Shown here one piece after another: positions 8,306 through 18,314 of a stretch of 64,000 nucleotides of DNA. How positions within the stretch are numbered: position 1 is the stretch's first letter; each line of letters starts with the position of its first letter. The stretch is taken from NCBI GenBank assembly GCA_029259115.1, contig JAPDJO010000018.1, forward strand, positions 17,937-81,936, read 5' to 3'. The DNA is from Thermoplasmatota archaeon (lineage in GTDB: Archaea; Thermoplasmatota; E2; DHVEG-1; B18-G2). A model generated the notes under the pieces. The model saw only the letters and a program-made list of their open reading frames with translations. It searched no databases and was not told the DNA's origin. The position numbers and the translations under genes were made by a program.

Positions 8306-9022
8306 TCACTTCAACAGGATATGTATAATGGTGAATAGGATATCCCCATAAAGATAAGCTGCTATGAATCCTATAAGTAGAGGAATCATAAAGGGTATCT
8401 TTGGAGTAACCCATATCCTTTTAAGGCCTTGTTTTTCTAGCTTTTCTAAATGTTCAGAGGTATCAAAGTCCTCAGGCATTATCACCAATTTTCTTTTTCC
8501 ATCCACTATTTTCTCCAAAGGCCAAACGAATTTTTTCTTTGCCTCTTCTATGTCCATCTTGTAACCGATTAAAGCAAAAGGAAACTCAACCTCTCTTTTT
8601 ATAGCGTTATATATCAGTAGAGATGGAGGAATTAGCAGAAATATAATTACAGAGTTGCAGAAGATGGTCCAAGGGAAAGGCATTACGGATAAATGCTGGG
8701 GGAAGCCGAACAGCGATGGCCAGAATGGACTCAAGATAGCTAATGACATTATCGCTTTAGCATCCGCTCCACCAAAGATTAGACCTATGTAAAAGAACAC
8801 ATACACTATGGCTATAATCAGAGGTATAAAGAGGAGATACAATGGGTTTTGAATGTTGCCAGTCAGGTATTGAATTATTAAGAGGATTGCCCCAACTCCT
8901 CCCATTATTATCCATAGGATGTTTGGTGCCATTCTCGTTTTTAGATCTGTGTAGCTTGCATATCCTAAAATTATCGTACCAACGACCAATCTTATGATAT
9001 CGAGCGTAGTTGGTATATCCAT
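8306..9022 (-). CDS. prepilin/prearchaellin peptidase, A24 family (FlaK/PibD-like)
   Basis: ASYTDLKTR, FGGADAK catalytic Asp motif, C-terminal WVTPKIPFMIP; adjacent to pilins. Confidence 0.92.
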   Translation of the reverse strand: MDIPTTLDIIRLVVGTIILGYASYTDLKTRMAPNILWIIMGGVGAILLIIQYLTGNIQNPLYLLFIPLIIAIVYVFFYIGLIFGGADAKAIMSLAILSPFWPSLFGFPQHLSVMPFPWTIFCNSVIIFLLIPPSLLIYNAIKREVEFPFALIGYKMDIEEAKKKFVWPLEKIVDGKRKLVIMPEDFDTSEHLEKLEKQGLKRIWVTPKIPFMIPLLIGFIAAYLYGDILFTIIHILLK

Positions 9023-9101
9023 GCTTTTCGGTATGAGATTTCTATTTTAGTATTTTTGGTAAACCATCTATCCCTTGTCACATTTATGAAATTTGATTCT
9101 G

Positions 9102-9158
9102 ACTAAAATTGAAACACATTCCAATTTTAGTATGACTTTTATTGAACTTCATTTCAAT
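9102..9158. repeat. two adjacent inverted repeats between pilin 1 and peptidase
   Basis: ACTAAAATTG(9102-9111)-N10-CAATTTTAGT(9122-9131) and ATTGAA(9141-9146)-N6-TTCAAT(9153-9158). Confidence 0.6.
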
Positions 9159-9166
9159 TTTTCTCC

Positions 9167-9529
9167 TTACGTAAAGTCCCAAGTTCCGAGCAAAACATTC
9201 GCAGGTATGTAGGAGATCTTTACTTCTTTCCCGGTGCAGTTGTATATATACTCGCCAGCATCAAGGAAGCCATCGTTATCTTCATCATAGATTTCTACTG
9301 TATCCGGATTTATCAATAAGTCACTCCATTTCACTTCTTGTTGTCCGCCTGTATAGAGAACAAGAAGTTTTCCATCTTCCCTTTGCTGGGAAAAGGTTGG
9401 AAATTTTGGCATAGTCTGCGTTGTTGCGGTCATACTCGTAAGGACAACAAATATGGCTGCAGCAAGTGCTACAACAATAGCAACCATAAGGACAACACCT
9501 ATAATCTCAGATACAGCATAGTCTCTCAT
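9167..9529 (-). CDS. archaeal type IV pilin (pilin 1)
   Basis: Class III signal MRDYA|VSEIIGVVLMVAIVV; start moved to ATG 9529 to avoid overlap with pilin 2. Confidence 0.85.
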   Translation of the reverse strand: MRDYAVSEIIGVVLMVAIVVALAAAIFVVLTSMTATTQTMPKFPTFSQQREDGKLLVLYTGGQQEVKWSDLLINPDTVEIYDEDNDGFLDAGEYIYNCTGKEVKISYIPANVLLGTWDFT

Positions 9530-9555
9530 TAGATTTGAGAAAGTGGTAGGACTAT

Positions 9556-9963
9556 TTAAAACTTGATTGTTCCTAGAACCTGATTTGTGGGTTTCCATAC
9601 CATTGTATAAGTTATTCCTTCGTTGAATCCTGTTATCATGTCTCCTCCAGATATCGTTGTCTGCCTGAGATTAGATGTTCCTGTTCCTATGCTTAGATCA
9701 GCCTGAACATAGTACTCGTTTCCACTTTCATCTTTGAATACAAGATTCGGAGTTGTTCCATCTGCGTATTTGTATGAGCTTGAACCCTTAACTATGATAA
9801 TGGAGTTTGTTACTTTGTCAACATTATAGGAGATATCAACTGTTGCTTTAGAGAACCTTAACATTCCATTAGAATATGCGTAAACACCAACAGCTAGCAT
9901 AATAACTATGGCTACCATAAATACTACTCCTACCACTCCAGACACTGCGTTATCGCTACCCAT
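9556..9963 (-). CDS. archaeal type IV pilin (pilin 2)
   Basis: Class III signal MGSDNA|VSGVVGVVFMVAIV; RBS GGTGAGGAG upstream. Confidence 0.85.
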   Translation of the reverse strand: MGSDNAVSGVVGVVFMVAIVIMLAVGVYAYSNGMLRFSKATVDISYNVDKVTNSIIIVKGSSSYKYADGTTPNLVFKDESGNEYYVQADLSIGTGTSNLRQTTISGGDMITGFNEGITYTMVWKPTNQVLGTIKF

Positions 9964-9997
9964 CTCTCCTCACCATATTAATCTCTGTAACTCATAC

Positions 9998-10032
9998 TAT
10001 TTAAACATTTTGCGACATTTTGACATGTCGCA
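9998..10032 (-). promoter_or_regulatory. TATA box plus palindromic operator upstream of pilin 2
   Basis: Minus-strand TTTAAATA at 9998-10005; perfect TGCGACAT-N6-ATGTCGCA at 10011-10032. Confidence 0.55.
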
Positions 10033-10224
10033 TTCTAGCAAAATAGATTTGATTTCAAGAGTTTGGGTAACATCTAGATGCAATGATTCTTTTAAATCAG
10101 GGTTGCGAACACATTAACTTATTAGCTAACTCTAATATACAGACATATAGATCTCTATAATAATTGAATCAAAAAATAAAAGGAGAGAGATGTTTTTAGG
10201 TTTGTAGATTTGTCTCTTCTATGC

Positions 10225-10638
10225 CTAGCTCACATCTGAAAGTGTGTATGTTCCCATGAGAGAATTAGTGGGCTCGTATCTGATTGTTATTGTTATATCT
10301 CCGCTACAGGTTGTAGTTTCGTCGTCAAAATCGATTGTATCCCCTGCTGTTACTGTTCCCGATTTCTCTATATACTCTGTATTGGTTCCATCCGTGACCG
10401 TTATATTTATGTCGCTCCACGAGATTCCTGGATCTGCCGAAGAGACTTTGAGTGTGTTTTCTGACTCGTCTTTTATGAAGGTAACATTTGGTGTGCTTTG
10501 GGTTGTTCCAGATATCATACCAGACACGTAGACATACACTGCAGCAGCGATGGCTACTGTTATCGCTACCATCAGTATTACGCCTATCACTGCTGATACA
10601 GCCTCTTCTCCCTCTACAAATTTCCTATTCGCCTTCAT
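10225..10638 (-). CDS. archaeal type IV pilin (pilin 3)
   Basis: MKANRKFVEGEEA|VSAVIGVILMVAITVAIAA class III signal and pilin N-terminal helix; RBS GGGGTGA. Confidence 0.92.
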   Translation of the reverse strand: MKANRKFVEGEEAVSAVIGVILMVAITVAIAAAVYVYVSGMISGTTQSTPNVTFIKDESENTLKVSSADPGISWSDINITVTDGTNTEYIEKSGTVTAGDTIDFDDETTTCSGDITITIRYEPTNSLMGTYTLSDVS

Positions 10639-11106
10639 GTTTCGTCACCCCTATACGTTGACTGTCCAGGTTCCTAGCAATGTGTTTGTCGGTATGTATG
10701 TCAAAGTTACTTCTACTTCTCCGCTACCAACTACCTGTATGTAGTCTCCCGCTGTAACCTCATATTGATTAGCTGAGGATGCGCAGTGATCTAGGTTCCC
10801 TCCGCCCGTGTTCTTACCTATGTTAGCACCTGCCGAACTATTCACATATACCTTGCTAGCAGTACTTGTCAGTTTTATATCATACCAATCGATTCCAGGC
10901 TCTGCACTATTTATTATTATCTTATCTGCATCATTGTCAACTATACAAGCTATCGTCGGTGTGTGCTGAGTTGTCCCCGCTAGCATACCAGAAACATAGA
11001 CATACACTGCAGCAGCGATGGCCACTGTTATCGCTACCATCAAGATTACGCCTATCACTGCTGAGACAGCCTCTTCTCCTTCTACAAATTTCCTATTCGC
11101 CTTCAT
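10516..11106 (-). repeat. 123-bp direct repeat encoding identical N-termini of pilins 3 and 4 (10516-10638 and 10984-11106)
   Basis: Hand alignment: 7 differences in 123 nt, all synonymous; 41 identical residues. Confidence 0.9.
10651..11106 (-). CDS. archaeal type IV pilin (pilin 4, first in operon, probable major pilin)
   Basis: Same N-terminus as pilin 3; strong RBS AGGAGGAG upstream. Confidence 0.92.
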   Translation of the reverse strand: MKANRKFVEGEEAVSAVIGVILMVAITVAIAAAVYVYVSGMLAGTTQHTPTIACIVDNDADKIIINSAEPGIDWYDIKLTSTASKVYVNSSAGANIGKNTGGGNLDHCASSANQYEVTAGDYIQVVGSGEVEVTLTYIPTNTLLGTWTVNV

Positions 11107-11122
11107 ACTCTATCCCACTCCT

Positions 11123-11242
11123 CCTAGCCTTGCGGCAGCCTCTTTCAATTGCATAGGCTTTATGGTATTTATACGTTTCGTTTCGCTGCCACAAGGCTTG
11201 GTTTTTCATTGGAGAAAAAGGATATTAAAACCTATATATAAA
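11123..11242 (-). promoter_or_regulatory. pilin promoter and structured 5' leader
   Basis: TTTATATA at 11242-11235; 14-bp inverted repeat 11126-11139/11185-11198 with a single G-U pair in the mRNA, ending at the RBS. Confidence 0.65.
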
Positions 11243-11291
11243 TCTTACCATTTAAATTAAAATCATATTTATAAAATTTAGTGAATTTTGA

Positions 11292-11717
11292 TTACTCCAT
11301 AAGATAACTTCTCCTTATCTCCTCCATGAACATCTCTATATCTGTAAGATGATCTCTGACTATTTCTACTATTCTGTTAGAATCGAGTGTTCCATATCTA
11401 TGAATCAAAAGATTTCTGAATCTCGCCATAAGAGATAACCTCTCGGCAAGATCTTTAGGAATAACCTTGCTCTCTCCAAGCACTTTAAACATATCGGCAT
11501 AACTTTCTGCTCTCCTGAGTCTTTCTGAAGAAATTATGTGATTAGCTATATCTATGCATGCCTCTATCATCTCAAATAAAGAGAATTTGAGTGCCTGATA
11601 ATCCTTGTAACTATTCTCTAAATCCTCTGGTTCTATGTCGGAGTAATTATCTCTGATAAAGTCAAGATTTCTCTCTATTATATCAAACTTCCCCTCTATG
11701 AGATCCTTATCAACCAT
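11292..11717 (-). CDS. HepT-like HEPN ribonuclease toxin (DUF86)
   Basis: IEACIDIANHII, RNLLIHRY (RX4HXY motif); downstream of MNT. Confidence 0.9.
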   Translation of the reverse strand: MVDKDLIEGKFDIIERNLDFIRDNYSDIEPEDLENSYKDYQALKFSLFEMIEACIDIANHIISSERLRRAESYADMFKVLGESKVIPKDLAERLSLMARFRNLLIHRYGTLDSNRIVEIVRDHLTDIEMFMEEIRRSYLME

Positions 11718-12096
11718 CTTTAAACCTCATCCTATCATACTCTAGAAAATAAGGTTTCATATCGATGTAGGTTTTTGTGATATATGTCTCGAATCTCACC
11801 CTCTCTTTTTCATCCCTTGAAAATATCAGTTTTCCATACCTCAAAACCTGATTTAGGAATCTTATAGGTTTGTTGTTTAATATTACCACTTCAACATCTT
11901 TGAGTTTTGCGTTCTTCTCTATCTCCTCAGCCAATTTTACTTCATAGAAGATGTCTGGTTTGAAATCTTTTGATAGATATACTCCTATATCCACATCACT
12001 TCTTTCATTATAATCTCCTCTTGCTTTCGAACCATAGAGATACGCAAATAGTATCTCGCTGTGTTTTCCTAGTATCTTCCTTAACTTTTTGATCAT
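11710..12096 (-). CDS. minimal nucleotidyltransferase antitoxin (MntA-like)
   Basis: YLYGS.ARG......SDVDIGV (GSX10DXD). Confidence 0.9.
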   Translation of the reverse strand: MIKKLRKILGKHSEILFAYLYGSKARGDYNERSDVDIGVYLSKDFKPDIFYEVKLAEEIEKNAKLKDVEVVILNNKPIRFLNQVLRYGKLIFSRDEKERVRFETYITKTYIDMKPYFLEYDRMRFKDG

Positions 12097-12204
12097 TCAT
12101 CAGTAAAGGTTTTTGTTCCTGTAAAAATATTTCGGTGAAATCTCAAAGATTGAGAAAATCATAATGTATAGAAATCATTTTAAACTACCGCCAAGTTATG
12201 TAGG

Positions 12205-12567
12205 ATGATGGAAGAAATCAAAAAGATGGTTGATTCTATCAAAACTTATCCTGAAGTTGTCGCTATCATTTTATATGGTTCTCACGCAAAGAATAAAGCT
12301 AATCCTCTATCTGATATCGATATAGCGGTTATAGTAAAGGACGAGAAGATAGAAGCAGAGATTGGAAGTTTTTCCTCAAACAAGTTTGATGTGGTTCCTT
12401 TTCATAGATTGCCTCTCTACATACAGTTCGAGGTGCTAAAAGATGGAAAGATACTATTTTTGAGAGATAGAAACTACTTTAACAGGATAAAGAGGAGAGT
12501 AATAAGAAATTATCTTGAGATGTCTGAAATGTACAGAAGGTTTGAGAGGAGGGTAATGTCAAGATGA
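12205..12567 (+). CDS. minimal nucleotidyltransferase antitoxin (MntA-like)
   Basis: ILYGSHAK......SDIDIAV (GSX10DXD), LPLYIQFEVLKDGK. Confidence 0.9.
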   Translation: MMEEIKKMVDSIKTYPEVVAIILYGSHAKNKANPLSDIDIAVIVKDEKIEAEIGSFSSNKFDVVPFHRLPLYIQFEVLKDGKILFLRDRNYFNRIKRRVIRNYLEMSEMYRRFERRVMSR

Positions 12568-12965
12568 GGTTATCTATCATCATATCCAGAATAGAAATAC
12601 ATGTAAAAAGAGCCAATGAATTGATGAATAGAGATCTATCTGACGATGTGGTATTCAGTGCTCTATCCATGGAATGTTTTCAAGCCATAAACTCAGCCAT
12701 AGACTTGGGAGAGCATCTTGTATCTAAACACAATCTCGGGATACCCTCTACATACAGAGAGATATTTGAGATACTTCACAAAAATAAGATAATAAACGAG
12801 GAAATTCTTAATGGAATGAAGAAACTCATCTTTTACAGAAATCTCATAGCCCACGAGTATTATACCATAGAAGTGAAGGATTTGAAAGAGATTGTAGATA
12901 TGCTCAATATTCTTCTCGATCTTGTGGAAAGTGTGAAAAGGTATGAGAGTGGTTTGGGTAAATGA
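12564..12965 (+). CDS. HepT-like HEPN ribonuclease toxin (DUF86)
   Basis: P.TYREIF.IL, RNLIAHEY (RX4HXY); ATGA overlap with MNT. Confidence 0.9.
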   Translation: MRLSIIISRIEIHVKRANELMNRDLSDDVVFSALSMECFQAINSAIDLGEHLVSKHNLGIPSTYREIFEILHKNKIINEEILNGMKKLIFYRNLIAHEYYTIEVKDLKEIVDMLNILLDLVESVKRYESGLGK

Positions 12966-13061
12966 ATTTAGGGGGAGCGTTATTCTACCAAGATTTTTCC
13001 TCATTAATAAACTCTAACGAAATATTTATAGACGAAAATCTCCTTCTAGTTTTGGGATGGG

Positions 13062-15185
13062 ATGCTAAACAGAGAATTAGATGATTTAGAGGAAAAGTTA
13101 AGATTTATTCACGAAACAATAGATAACTTGTTTAGAGAAGAGACCACACCAAAACCTCCATCCTTTGATGATATCACAGAAGAGATAGATAATGTTATAT
13201 CAAGAGGAGAATATGGAGCATTTCTAAGAGAACCTGATCTAACTCCAAAACTTCCATCTCCATTTGAGAGAAGACCAAGGTTACCGAAACCTTCGAGAAT
13301 AAAGGAAGAAACGTTTGTTCCAACTGTACAAACAGAACTTCCCTTCCTTATATGCGAGAACTTTGATAGGGTTGAAGAACTGCTGCTAAATCCTTCCTTC
13401 TCTGCTGTATCACTCAATAGAATAGAAGAAATCTCTACATCTGATTTTCTCACCTTCGAATCAAAGATGTTCAGCTTTAGCGAGTCCAAACAGATTCTGA
13501 AACCAAGAAGAGAAAAAGCTACAAAAGCTATAGATGGGTTACTTAAAGAGAGGGAAGAAAGAGTAGAAGAGGTTCCGACTCCACCAGATAAAGAAGTTGT
13601 AGAGGAAAAGAAAGGTTTTGGATGGAAAGGGCTGGGAACTAGATTGATAGTTTACGACAAAAAGTTGAAGGAATACAAGTATGTGGTAAGAGAGCCAGAG
13701 CTTACCGAAGAAGAGGAGAAGATCAAAAATGAGTTGATCAAATTATTCAAACTTCTTGCTGATGTGCCTGTCTTTGATGTTGATGAAAAGGAAAAACAAA
13801 AGATACTGGAAGAATCTTTGGATCAAATCATAAAGGATAACGGGATAAAGATTCCAGAGGAATCAAAGGATAAGATATTCTACTACATAATGAGGGATTT
13901 TGTTGGTTATGGGAAGATAGACATACCGATGAGAGATGGAGAAATAGAGGATATCTCCTGCGACGGTTATAGTGTACCAATATTTGTACATCATAGAAAG
14001 TATCAGTCTATAGAAACGAATATCAGGTTCAAAGATGGAGAAGAACTCGATTCCTTTGTTGTAAGGTTAGCTCAGATCTGTGGTAAGCAGATATCTGTGT
14101 ATTCTCCCATTGTTGACGGAAAACTACCAGATGGTTCAAGATTACAGGCTACTCTATCAAAGACTGTAACGAAAGAATCAACATTTACTGTTAGAAGATT
14201 TAGAGAGGATCCATTAACTCCTATAGATCTAATAGAGAGTAACACCATGTCCCTCGAGATGGCAGCCTACTTCTGGTTAGCAATAGAACATGGAGCTTCT
14301 ATCCTATTCTGTGGTGGCACAGCGAGTGGAAAGACCACTACTCTAAATGCCCTCTCTCTATTCATACCACCATCTCACAAGATAATCTCTATAGAAGATA
14401 CCAGAGAAGTAAATCTCCCACACAAGAACTGGATAGCTGGAACAACCAGGGAAGGATTCTCGACTGCCGAGACAGAAAAGACAGGTAAAGATATAGACAT
14501 GTTCGATCTACTGAGAGCTGCTTTAAGGCAGAGACCTAGGGTTATAATAGTCGGAGAGGTCAGAGGAAGAGAGGCTTACGCTCTCTTTCAAGCGATGGCT
14601 ACAGGTCATACTTCCTATGCAACCATACACGCTGGTAGCATACATACCTTAATCCAAAGATTAGAGAATCCACCCATCTCTCTACCAAGAGCTTTGCTCA
14701 CATCTCTAGATATCATTGTTTTCATCAATGCCATACCCGTTGGAGATAAACTCATAAGAAGGATTACAAGTGTAACCGAGATAATAAAGATGGATCCTGA
14801 CACCAAGCAACTCATCTTCATGCAACCTTTCAGATGGGTATCCAAAGTAGATGATAGATTTGAATGTACAGGTAGCAGCAAGGTTTTGATGGATATAAGA
14901 TTAGTAAATGATTGGGATGAAAAGAGATTGCAGGAAGAGATAAAGAATAGGATGAAGGTCCTGGAGTGGATGGTCAAGAATAAAGTCAGATCGTACAAAG
15001 AAGTTGGTGCGATAATAGCTGAGTACTACAAAGATCCAAAATCTGTACTTAAGAATCCAGGGGCTGTACTAAAAAGACTGAAAAAAGAGGAAGAAAAGAG
15101 AGAGGAGAAAAAGGAGGAGGAAACAGAGATAACCGGAAAGAGATCATTCCTTGATATCTTTAAATTTAGGAGGAAGAAGAAATGA
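13062..15185 (+). CDS. type IV pilus assembly ATPase (archaeal VirB11/FlaI-like)
   Basis: IEDISCDG, LPDGSRLQ, Walker A GGTASGKTT, SIEDTRE, ALRQRP..IIVGEVRG, TGH..YATIHA. Confidence 0.95.
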   Translation: MLNRELDDLEEKLRFIHETIDNLFREETTPKPPSFDDITEEIDNVISRGEYGAFLREPDLTPKLPSPFERRPRLPKPSRIKEETFVPTVQTELPFLICENFDRVEELLLNPSFSAVSLNRIEEISTSDFLTFESKMFSFSESKQILKPRREKATKAIDGLLKEREERVEEVPTPPDKEVVEEKKGFGWKGLGTRLIVYDKKLKEYKYVVREPELTEEEEKIKNELIKLFKLLADVPVFDVDEKEKQKILEESLDQIIKDNGIKIPEESKDKIFYYIMRDFVGYGKIDIPMRDGEIEDISCDGYSVPIFVHHRKYQSIETNIRFKDGEELDSFVVRLAQICGKQISVYSPIVDGKLPDGSRLQATLSKTVTKESTFTVRRFREDPLTPIDLIESNTMSLEMAAYFWLAIEHGASILFCGGTASGKTTTLNALSLFIPPSHKIISIEDTREVNLPHKNWIAGTTREGFSTAETEKTGKDIDMFDLLRAALRQRPRVIIVGEVRGREAYALFQAMATGHTSYATIHAGSIHTLIQRLENPPISLPRALLTSLDIIVFINAIPVGDKLIRRITSVTEIIKMDPDTKQLIFMQPFRWVSKVDDRFECTGSSKVLMDIRLVNDWDEKRLQEEIKNRMKVLEWMVKNKVRSYKEVGAIIAEYYKDPKSVLKNPGAVLKRLKKEEEKREEKKEEETEITGKRSFLDIFKFRRKKK

Positions 15186-16973: not shown

Positions 16974-18314
16974 ATGAAATTCAGATCCATACTCAGAGAT
17001 AACTATGCATTATCATCCCATGTACTAGATACAGCTCTGCTTCTAGGTATAGCTATAATAGCGTTTGGTGTTGTATCCTCAAATTTTTTTCCCTTAATTC
17101 TCCCAACCCATCCTCCAAATGTTGATCTATCTGCTTACATAAGAGGAGATTATGTATTTATAGAGCACATGGGTGGAGAGAGCTTAAAGTATAATAAAAC
17201 GAGAATAATCGTAAGTATAGGCGATGAAGCTAAGAATAAACCACCACTTATCGAAAAGAATAACAACGGTTTGTGGGAATGTGGTGAGTATGTATGCTAT
17301 TTTTACAATACCACCGATTTAGTGAGTATACTAGTTATAGACGAAGAGACAAATTTTATACTCTTGCAAGGTAATCTGAAGAGAGGAGAGGTTTCATGGA
17401 TAGGAGCAACACCTCCTATCTTGGTATCTAGTTTAAGAACCAACAGCGATGATGAAGATCTCATATGCTATGCTTTGCCTCAGGAAAACTTCAACGCAAA
17501 AACATATATTTACAACTGGAAGAAGAATGGAGAATCCATATTCGAGGTTCTCCTCCCATTTGACAGTCAAAGCAATAGCCTTGCAAAGGACTACTCTGGA
17601 AATGGTTATGATGGCACAGTAGATGGTGCAACATGGATAGCCGATGGCAAAGTGGGTGGAGCCTACAGTTTTGATGGTATAGACGACAAGATAGGAATAT
17701 CTTTACCAAACGTATTCAGGGATTTAAGCAATAACTTCACGATCTCTCTCTGGATAAGAAGTAGGGATATAGTAACGAATAGCACCAAAATAAAAACAAT
17801 AGTTGAGATATACATAGATGAAAACAACTCCCTACAGATATTCCAATACAACTCTTCCTTCCAATTTGGATTTAAGGTAAATGGGGACAAAAAACAGGCT
17901 TTGAGAACGTCAGAGTTGCAAGAAAACCAGTGGTATTTCTTGAGCATAGTATGGAACTCTGGAAGTCCTTTGGTATATCTGAATGGCACCTTGAATATGT
18001 CGCCTGGCGCAAGAGAATATCCAGAAGGAAATAAAAGTAGTCTTGTCATTGGTCAATTGAGTAATGGAAATAATAGCTTCAATGGAGACATAGATGAGTT
18101 CTATATCTATAGATATGCCAGATCTTCTCAACAGGTGTACCAAGATTATCTGGACACGAAAGATGGATCATCTGATCACAGAACCTTGGTTGCAAGTGAA
18201 ACTAGCTTGGGTGATGCTTGGTCATGCACAATTACACCTAACAACTCATTAACAGATGGGGACACCATAGATTCTGAGGTTCTGGTTATCCAAGCATATG
18301 GGGGTGGGACATGA
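16974..18314 (+). CDS. pilin-like protein with LamG/concanavalin-like domain (probable minor pilin/adhesin)
   Basis: Class III-like N-terminus, IEHMGGESL and WECGE pilin-domain motifs, then DYSGNG..GT..GATW..G..GGAYSFDG.DD and FNG.IDEF.IY LamG motifs. Confidence 0.8.
   Translation: MKFRSILRDNYALSSHVLDTALLLGIAIIAFGVVSSNFFPLILPTHPPNVDLSAYIRGDYVFIEHMGGESLKYNKTRIIVSIGDEAKNKPPLIEKNNNGLWECGEYVCYFYNTTDLVSILVIDEETNFILLQGNLKRGEVSWIGATPPILVSSLRTNSDDEDLICYALPQENFNAKTYIYNWKKNGESIFEVLLPFDSQSNSLAKDYSGNGYDGTVDGATWIADGKVGGAYSFDGIDDKIGISLPNVFRDLSNNFTISLWIRSRDIVTNSTKIKTIVEIYIDENNSLQIFQYNSSFQFGFKVNGDKKQALRTSELQENQWYFLSIVWNSGSPLVYLNGTLNMSPGAREYPEGNKSSLVIGQLSNGNNSFNGDIDEFYIYRYARSSQQVYQDYLDTKDGSSDHRTLVASETSLGDAWSCTITPNNSLTDGDTIDSEVLVIQAYGGGT

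Follow-up and report, generated by a model that had tools for sequence, protein, structure and literature searches.

Bacterial mRNAs can carry a stabilizing stem-loop at their 5' terminus, as in the ompA, ermC, and aprE leaders, while the erm and cat genes are subject to leader-peptide translational attenuation, in which a short upstream ORF is combined with mutually exclusive pairings. Tandem promoters that give rise to mRNA isoforms with different leader structure are common in bacteria, and invertible promoters are known from fimS and the Bacteroides invertons. In archaea, few cis-acting mRNA elements have, to our knowledge, been described. The titles and opening lines of abstracts covered by a literature search describe no archaeal pilin leader RNA, and this search together with Rfam scans gave no cis-acting mRNA element for archaeal surface-filament genes. 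The sole stem-loop at an archaeal pilus locus to emerge from the same search is that of pilB1 in Halobacterium salinarum (PMC4292770), which, in the passages of that report dealing with it, is predicted to lie in the 5' UTR of the pil-1 locus and to mask the SD.

Here, we describe the leader of a major type IV pilin gene in a stretch of DNA of 64,000 nucleotides (the window) that belongs to an uncultured Thermoplasmatota archaeon. The leader resembles the ompA, ermC, and aprE leaders in having a hairpin a few nucleotides from the mRNA 5' end, upstream of the SD of a very highly expressed gene; it differs in being archaeal, in that the helix lies against the SD and partly takes in its first base, and in that, in the lineage of the window, the helix spans a second promoter. 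A short upstream ORF and two mutually exclusive pairings of the SD-adjacent segment are shared with erm and cat, but the SD core and AUG of the pilin gene are never sequestered, the leader peptide is unconserved, and the upstream ORF would be leaderless. As in tandem promoters, an inner promoter lies within the outer leader, so that one structure exists in one isoform only; here, however, the outer helix has the inner core promoter as its loop, and the same design of a hairpin followed by the SD would conclude the leader of both isoforms. By analogy, the design would work like a bacterial 5' stabilizer hairpin and tandem promoters combined. With fimS and the Bacteroides invertons the locus has in common an inverted repeat bracketing a promoter; its spacing, wobble pairs, and gene neighborhood set it apart, as detailed below. 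Finally, H. salinarum also has a predicted leader stem-loop at an archaeal type IV pilus locus, yet that stem-loop lies at the ATPase gene pilB1, masks the SD together with a GUG start codon, and, as presented in the passages that treat it, is a single-sequence prediction without comparative support, unlike the pilin hairpin (PMC4292770).

The four-pilin operon and its proximal promoter

The region under study is the promoter and 5' leader of an operon of four pilin genes with the major type IV pilin first (Table 1). All four genes (10651-11106, 10225-10638, 9556-9963, and 9167-9598) are on the minus strand and encode proteins with the archaeal Pilin_N domain in Pfam, the product of 9556-9963 scoring 24.4 bits and thus slightly below the cut-off of 25.2; a prepilin peptidase with Peptidase_A24 and Arc_PepC_II matches is encoded at 8306-9022 on the same strand. 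Divergent from the pilins, the plus strand encodes a PilB-like ATPase (13062-15185), two T2SSF membrane proteins, and a pilin-like adhesin. This last protein (16974-18314, 446 residues) begins with Pilin_N, also contains a lectin-like Laminin_G_3 domain, and is probably a pilus-tip or minor-pilin adhesin. Relatives of the first pilin are present in 35 of 41 related genomes. The relatives used for comparison are metagenome-assembled genomes of Thermoplasmata, Thermoplasmatales, or Thermoplasmatota archaeon, and the stretch occurs in sequencing runs that bear the label of a hydrothermal vent or marine sediment metagenome.

Two MNT/HepT toxin-antitoxin pairs (11292-12965) separate the pilus ATPase from the pilins. 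In G006, a genome of a different genus but of the same family (f1) as the window, the ATPase and pilin genes are directly divergent and only 337 bp apart (L031:1164-1500), and because of this the MNT/HepT pairs look inserted into an old intergenic region. A contig of depth 2 from an RNA library (run X20) joins 11301 to 11701, skipping 399 nt and with them nearly the whole HepT gene, and probably comes from a strain lacking HepT. A run of five T residues ahead of the pilin promoters is a possible terminator for the MNT/HepT genes, a role that we take to follow from archaeal oligo-T termination.

Table 1 Features of the pilin leader and operon in window coordinates (all on the minus strand)
Feature	Position	Strand	Basis or remark
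Upstream TATA-like box TTTATAAA; adjoining upstream block is conserved in genus G006	11268-11275	-	Alignment; matrix score 10.8 vs 7.0 (99.9th percentile)
Distal TATA TTTATATA, candidate second promoter	11235-11242	-	Matrix score 12.0
T run, five residues; possible archaeal terminator for upstream MNT/HepT genes	11215-11219	-	Read in sequence
38-codon upstream ORF, out of pilin frame	11093-11209	-	Stop overlaps pilin codons 4-5
5' arm of long helix	11185-11201	-	Repeat search and fold; upstream of proximal promoter; unchanged in L130 and L136
Proximal BRE/TATA, CGAAACG + TATAAATA	11166-11180	-	Order-wide conserved pilin promoter, within the 45-nt loop
Second AGCCU, alternative partner of AGGCU 11130-11126	11155-11159	-	Pairing used by covariance model R1
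Predicted proximal transcription start	11140-11143	-	Inferred from leaderless calibration, not mapped
3' arm of long helix	11123-11139	-	Repeat search and fold; ends within first SD bases
Small hairpin with GCAA loop, predicted in short transcript	11124-11138	-	-5.2 kcal/mol at 37 C
Extended ribosome-binding motif, AGGAGGAG (11125-11118) then TGGGA	11113-11125	-	Near-invariant in 72 leaders
First (major) type IV pilin gene	10651-11106	-	151 aa; Pfam Pilin_N E = 4.5e-10
Three further pilins (10225-10638, 9556-9963, 9167-9598) and prepilin peptidase (8306-9022)	8306-10638	-	Pfam

For the comparison of leaders, 99 distinct pilin upstream regions were gathered, 72 of which have the leader motif AGGAG, three or four purines, and TGGG. 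In most of these 72, a purine-rich element (BRE form CAAAAAG) followed by an A/T 8-mer precedes the SD by 38-50 nt. An archaeal BRE/TATA is identified by its constant place in orthologous loci and by an A/T-rich 8-mer that follows purine-rich sequence, and precisely this is found at 11180-11166, where the TATA box has a promoter-matrix score of 11.5 against a 99.9th percentile of 7.0 in the genome background. Thus, what the preliminary description had taken for a BRE/TATA look-alike in the loop of the long stem is the pilin promoter itself, conserved across the order. A DNA search with the leader (161 nt) against the 41 related genomes is in keeping with this position: significant matches were obtained only in G004 and G001 (81% identity), which belong to the genus of the window, and in G006 (75%), and all of them begin at ~11180 and reach the start codon, leaving out the 5' arm of the long helix.

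To place the transcription start, we calibrated on this genome alone the offsets at which ATG codons of ORFs of at least 100 codons follow TATA-like 8-mers. These ATGs peak at offsets 22-25 (29, 38, 37, and 33 cases) over a background of 5-14 per offset at offsets 5-19, and ATGs of short ORFs lack the peak. Many genes of this archaeon are therefore probably leaderless, by contrast with the pilin gene and its long, SD-bearing leader, and starts are expected at the ~23rd-26th nt after the TATA box. The proximal start predicted in this way has both the 5' arm and the second AGCCU upstream of it. The preliminary description had named a start downstream of 11185 as speaking against its own reading, and ~11143-11140 is such a position. 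Because the loop contains the pilin promoter, folding of the long stem would require a longer transcript, started at a second promoter farther upstream. Sequences covering 10600-11750 come as low-depth contigs from two RNA-library runs and two DNA runs. The RNA-library contigs have a depth of 2-3.6, too thin to define transcript ends or level; one of them (depth 2) covers 11176-11301, where DNA carry-over is possible and transcription of the 5' arm is neither proved nor excluded by it. The pilin RNA-library contig of one relative ends at 11116, its depth being low and its ends undefined.

Other arrangements were seen upstream of related pilin promoters. In one genus (L057-L061, L043, L079, and L087), the BRE is immediately preceded by an inverted repeat, ACAGATG...CATCTGT, located ~60-100 nt ahead of the pilin start and with AAGGAGG in its variable loop. 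In other genera (L054, L056, L067, L076, L081, L084, L115, and others), the pilin promoter is of a second type, in which two ACCTGCA-like words ~10 nt apart immediately precede the TATA box and could be a regulator site.

A short hairpin abutting the ribosome-binding motif across the order

In 60 of the 72 leaders, a stem of at least 4 bp has a 3' strand that ends exactly at the SD AGGAG, and in 42 of the 72 this SD-abutting stem begins 24-35 nt after the TATA box, i.e. ~0-10 nt from the predicted 5' end. An initial stem scan over a 90-nt span was noisy, with shifted-anchor controls giving stems nearly as long, and we therefore used a local scan together with a test in which 3' strands were swapped between leaders. 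The leaders' own stems have a mean length of 4.18 bp vs 3.16 bp after swapping, and stems of at least 5 bp make up 46% of the own pairings vs 17% of the swapped ones.

A covariance model (R1) built from 7 leaders gave 75 matches among 98 sources. In the resulting alignment, which is fitted to the model and hence biased towards the modelled structure, 96.9% of cells pair vs 85.8% in shuffles, and 29 cells are changed on both sides vs 9.5 expected; none of 500 shuffles reaches either value, and compensatory changes occur at three of the six pairs. The non-Watson-Crick cells of the hairpin comprise 8 G.U, 0 A.C, and 9 other mismatches, and the occurrence of G.U without A.C indicates an RNA on the sense strand. 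Loops of the SD-abutting hairpin span 3 to ~45 nt, a range that is a poor fit to a protein-bound DNA palindrome. Among 151 genomes of the class, R1 (E <= 0.001) hit 33, all of them in family f2 (33 of 67) and with one copy each, and the pilin leaders positive for R1 come from at least 18 genera and always belong to the major pilin gene. Family f1, which includes the window, is too diverged for R1 at this threshold; the window itself gives a weak match (11114-11169; 15.4 bits, E = 0.39) in which the alternative AGCCU is used. No Rfam match overlaps the leader in the interval 9000-13000 of the window (E <= 10), and none was found at the leaders of five related loci (E <= 1).

In the predicted short transcript of the window, the corresponding hairpin is weak, dropping from -5.2 kcal/mol at 37 C to -1.6 at 60 C, and the short transcript of G006 is nearly hairpin-free (-2.2 kcal/mol). 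The spacing seen across the order recurs twice in the window: counted from the start predicted from the proximal TATA box, the small hairpin begins within 0-10 nt, and so does the long helix when counted from the start predicted from the distal one.

The bases adjoining the hairpin are conserved as well. The extended ribosome-binding motif in its leader context occurs a single time in this genome. Across genera, the segment that follows the SD, consisting of three or four purines and TGGGA, is almost invariant, which is more than an SD requires; the 16S rRNA gene, sought as a pairing partner for TGGGA, is absent from this assembly. Three paralogous pilin genes in relatives (L118, L116, and L074, at 1440-1506 in each) are closely preceded by a reverse complement of the SD motif, and in the predicted folds of their leaders the SD and the following GGG are fully paired (-19.6 to -21.5 kcal/mol; z = -3.6 for L074). 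As modelled, these leaders are cases of true SD-masking, in contrast to that of the window.

Taken together, a covarying hairpin next to the SD is present order-wide at pilin leaders and matches no Rfam family, bearing out the preliminary suggestion of an undescribed archaeal leader RNA element at the pilin gene. The hairpin found across the order is the firmer result and also the more useful one; the arrangement with a promoter in the loop is an interesting, unproven variant.

The long helix, the distal TATA box, and the upstream ORF

Every sequence feature on which the preliminary description was built (the TATA box, upstream ORF, stem, second AGCCU, and CGAAACG block) is present on the minus strand where it had been located. 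In the long stem, 11198-11185 pairs with 11139-11126 to give 14 bp, of which 13 are Watson-Crick pairs and one is U.G, around a loop of 45 nt; past an A/A mismatch, two C-G pairs lengthen the stem to 11201/11123, so that it touches the AGGAGGAG motif at its first G residues. For the complete leader, the MFE is -33.8 kcal/mol (z = -2.76), a stability equaled by 2 of 200 shuffles. The duplex of the 3' arm with the segment ahead of the TATA box is far more distinctive (z = -7.1, reached by 0 of 200 shuffles), which substantiates the claim of a genuine 14-bp stem at the ribosome-binding site, beyond chance. The three strains have duplex z-scores of -7.1, -8.4, and -7.7, G006 has one of -6.0, and the median over the 72 related leaders is -0.04.

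The long helix was found in the window and its strain-level metagenome contigs L130 and L136, and in G006. MAFFT alignments of the leaders misalign the 5' strands and so understate the pair counts of G006, for which its own fold was used instead. In that fold, the G006 helix has 18 pairs, including three G.U, with two bulges, and encloses the proximal TATA box. The helices of the window and G006 share their GCCU/AGGC and CAGC/GCUG parts and differ in the middle on both sides; the flanks of the two loci have diverged to near saturation, and a helix of 16-18 bp has been kept in both with changes on both sides. All five non-Watson-Crick pairs of the long helix are G.U on the pilin sense strand, with no A.C, and the sense strand folds better than the antisense strand in four of four sequences. 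Of six sites that vary among four assemblies, five are within the 45-nt loop and the remaining one is in the stem with pairing kept; in L136, this sole stem change (11131 A>G) converts a U-A pair into U.G.

Other lineages of family f1 (G001/G004, G002/G003, and L131/L137) are without the long helix. Both G001 and G004 have a HepT stop ~23 nt ahead of the BRE and have lost the distal region by deletion, and their arms are no longer complementary; G004 instead carries a canonical small hairpin (GGCU-GGAA-AGCU) at the same place. Conservation of the stem is thus divided, in that it is retained in a second genus and absent from the remaining f1 lineages. Judged from these sequences, the 14-bp stem is a lineage-specific elaboration, present in two lineages and absent from three or four, the lineages not being independent of each other. 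The distribution fits a role in which the RNA helix would matter only where the distal promoter exists. Counted from the start predicted from the distal TATA box, the long helix begins after 5-8 nt and so has the geometry of the canonical hairpin. The second AGCCU is present and is the pairing used by R1, as the proposal of an alternative pairing requires, but it lies upstream of the predicted proximal start; the block AAGCCTAT, in which it is found, occurs only in the two long-helix lineages.

Around the distal TATA box, an identical block of 10 nt occurs in G006 amid diverged sequence, and in both lineages an ATG follows after 26 nt. In the window, this is the ATG at 11209, the 26th nt after the distal TATA box and within the leaderless peak of this genome. 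The upstream 130 nt are AT-rich and contain four TATA-like 8-mers that score alike, and from our calibration we estimate the probability that an ATG falls at the right distance from one of four such boxes by chance at roughly 15-20%. An open ORF of 42 codons starts at the equivalent ATG of G006 and ends at the same stop as the 38 codons of the window, the two peptides being dissimilar, and none of the three other assemblies introduces a stop. In a set of 73 leaders, none of the three frames is open preferentially ahead of the pilin start (median of 7 codons in each), and the open frame differs even within one genus; an open frame of 40 codons has an estimated chance occurrence of roughly 5%. 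The upstream ORF first described from the window therefore exists and its open frame is retained in G006, but neither its peptide nor, across the order, its frame is conserved.

Two proposed nested units and competing readings

We favor, at about even confidence, a reading in which the leader consists of two nested promoter-hairpin-SD units of one design, in which a TATA box would be followed ~23 nt later by the start, by a hairpin near the 5' end, and directly thereafter by the SD. The inner, order-wide unit would comprise the BRE/TATA at 11180-11166, a start at ~11143-11140, the GCAA-capped hairpin at 11138-11124, and the SD at 11125-11118. The outer, lineage-specific unit would begin with the distal TATA box at 11242-11235 and a start at ~11211-11209 coinciding with the AUG of the 38-codon ORF, and its helix of 14-16 bp (11201-11185 with 11139-11123), confined to the long mRNA, would loop out the inner promoter and end at the SD. 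By analogy with bacterial leaders, an SD-abutting 5' helix might shield a heavily used mRNA from decay at the 5' end, and the same helix might leave the SD core single-stranded for ribosome loading. We infer from these patterns where both transcripts start and that the distal promoter is used; the stabilizing function is proposed by analogy only.

A leader of this kind would not be an SD-masking OFF switch, because GGAGGAG is free in both forms. In the predicted folds, only A/G 11125-11123 are paired, and GGAGGAG and the AUG are open in both; neither pairing masks the SD core or the AUG, leaving a switch without clear output. The idea of the stem as a translational switch is not upheld, since in an attenuator the SD or start codon is sequestered by default and here both are accessible. 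This bears directly on a switch coupled to the upstream ORF, a minority reading that we consider unlikely, in which a leaderless long mRNA would be translated from the AUG at 11209, the ribosome would melt the 14-bp helix, the 3' arm would pair with AGCCU 11159-11155 instead, and pilin initiation would be coupled or blocked when translation terminates at a UAG 11 nt past the pilin AUG. The position of the ATG at the leaderless distance of this genome from the distal TATA box speaks for such coupling, as do the same geometry in G006 with a frame open to the same stop (indels appear to have preserved the frame, because 38 and 42 codons end there), the lack of introduced stops in the three other assemblies, and the confinement of AAGCCTAT to the two long-helix lineages. 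What counts against it, besides an SD core and AUG exposed in both pairings with no evident output, is that the peptides of the window and G006 are unrelated, that the median of 7 open codons holds in every frame of the 73 leaders, and that a frame of 40 codons would be open by chance in about 5% of cases by our estimate. The same arms might also be a functionless relic, e.g. an old inverted duplication that has not yet decayed, with only the proximal promoter in use. That the 5' arm is upstream of the conserved promoter, that most f1 lineages manage without the repeat, and that the thin RNA contigs give the long transcript no direct support would all suit a relic, but we regard it as improbable in view of the 16-18 bp helix kept in the window and G006 despite near-saturated flanks and with changes on both sides, the five G.U pairs on the sense strand, and the concentration of five of six variable sites in the loop, with the single stem site still pairing.

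Two further readings place the function of the repeat in the DNA. Archaeal regulators commonly act at or beside the core promoter, and the arms, flanking the BRE/TATA and the predicted start, could be half-sites for a regulator that loops or occludes the promoter; half-sites of 14 bp set 45-57 bp apart with a spacing that differs between the two genera, mismatches of the G.U type on one strand together with better folding of the sense strand in four of four sequences, and a shorter homologous element with loops of 3 to ~45 nt in relatives make this quite unlikely. An invertible promoter giving pilus phase variation, which had been raised as the less likely option in the preliminary description, draws on the inverted repeat flanking the promoter and is very unlikely: the spacer is only 45 bp, the repeat contains wobble pairs on the sense strand, none of the 69 ORFs scanned in the 64-kb window matched a recombinase family, as that description had itself remarked, and a single orientation was seen in four of four assemblies (the window, L130, L136, and a DNA contig of run X2), although contigs can miss rare forms. 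We also rejected a direct repeat of a palindromic operator, since the arms match at 13 of 14 positions in inverted and only ~6 of 10 in direct orientation, and cruciform extrusion, against which a 45-nt loop counts.

As a candidate new RNA family, the short hairpin is a clean case, with one copy per genome, always at the major pilin gene, and with covariation in at least 18 genera. Because the organisms are uncultured sediment and vent archaea, the leader signature also marks the major pilin gene among the pilins. The nested arrangement of two promoter-hairpin-SD units offers a natural test of whether the hairpin is needed by whichever transcript is made. A bolder proposition, which we put forward only tentatively and hold to be doubtful, is that the SD-abutting hairpin and AGGAG-N3/4-TGGGA together constitute a new cis-acting RNA family for major pilin mRNAs in this uncultured order and that, in this lineage, with the core promoter placed in the loop of a leader helix, the choice of promoter is a true two-state device. 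If so, the cell would make either a long, strongly structured pilin mRNA with a leaderless upstream ORF or a short, nearly unstructured one, and isoforms differing in stability or translation would allow graded or bistable piliation without DNA rearrangement.
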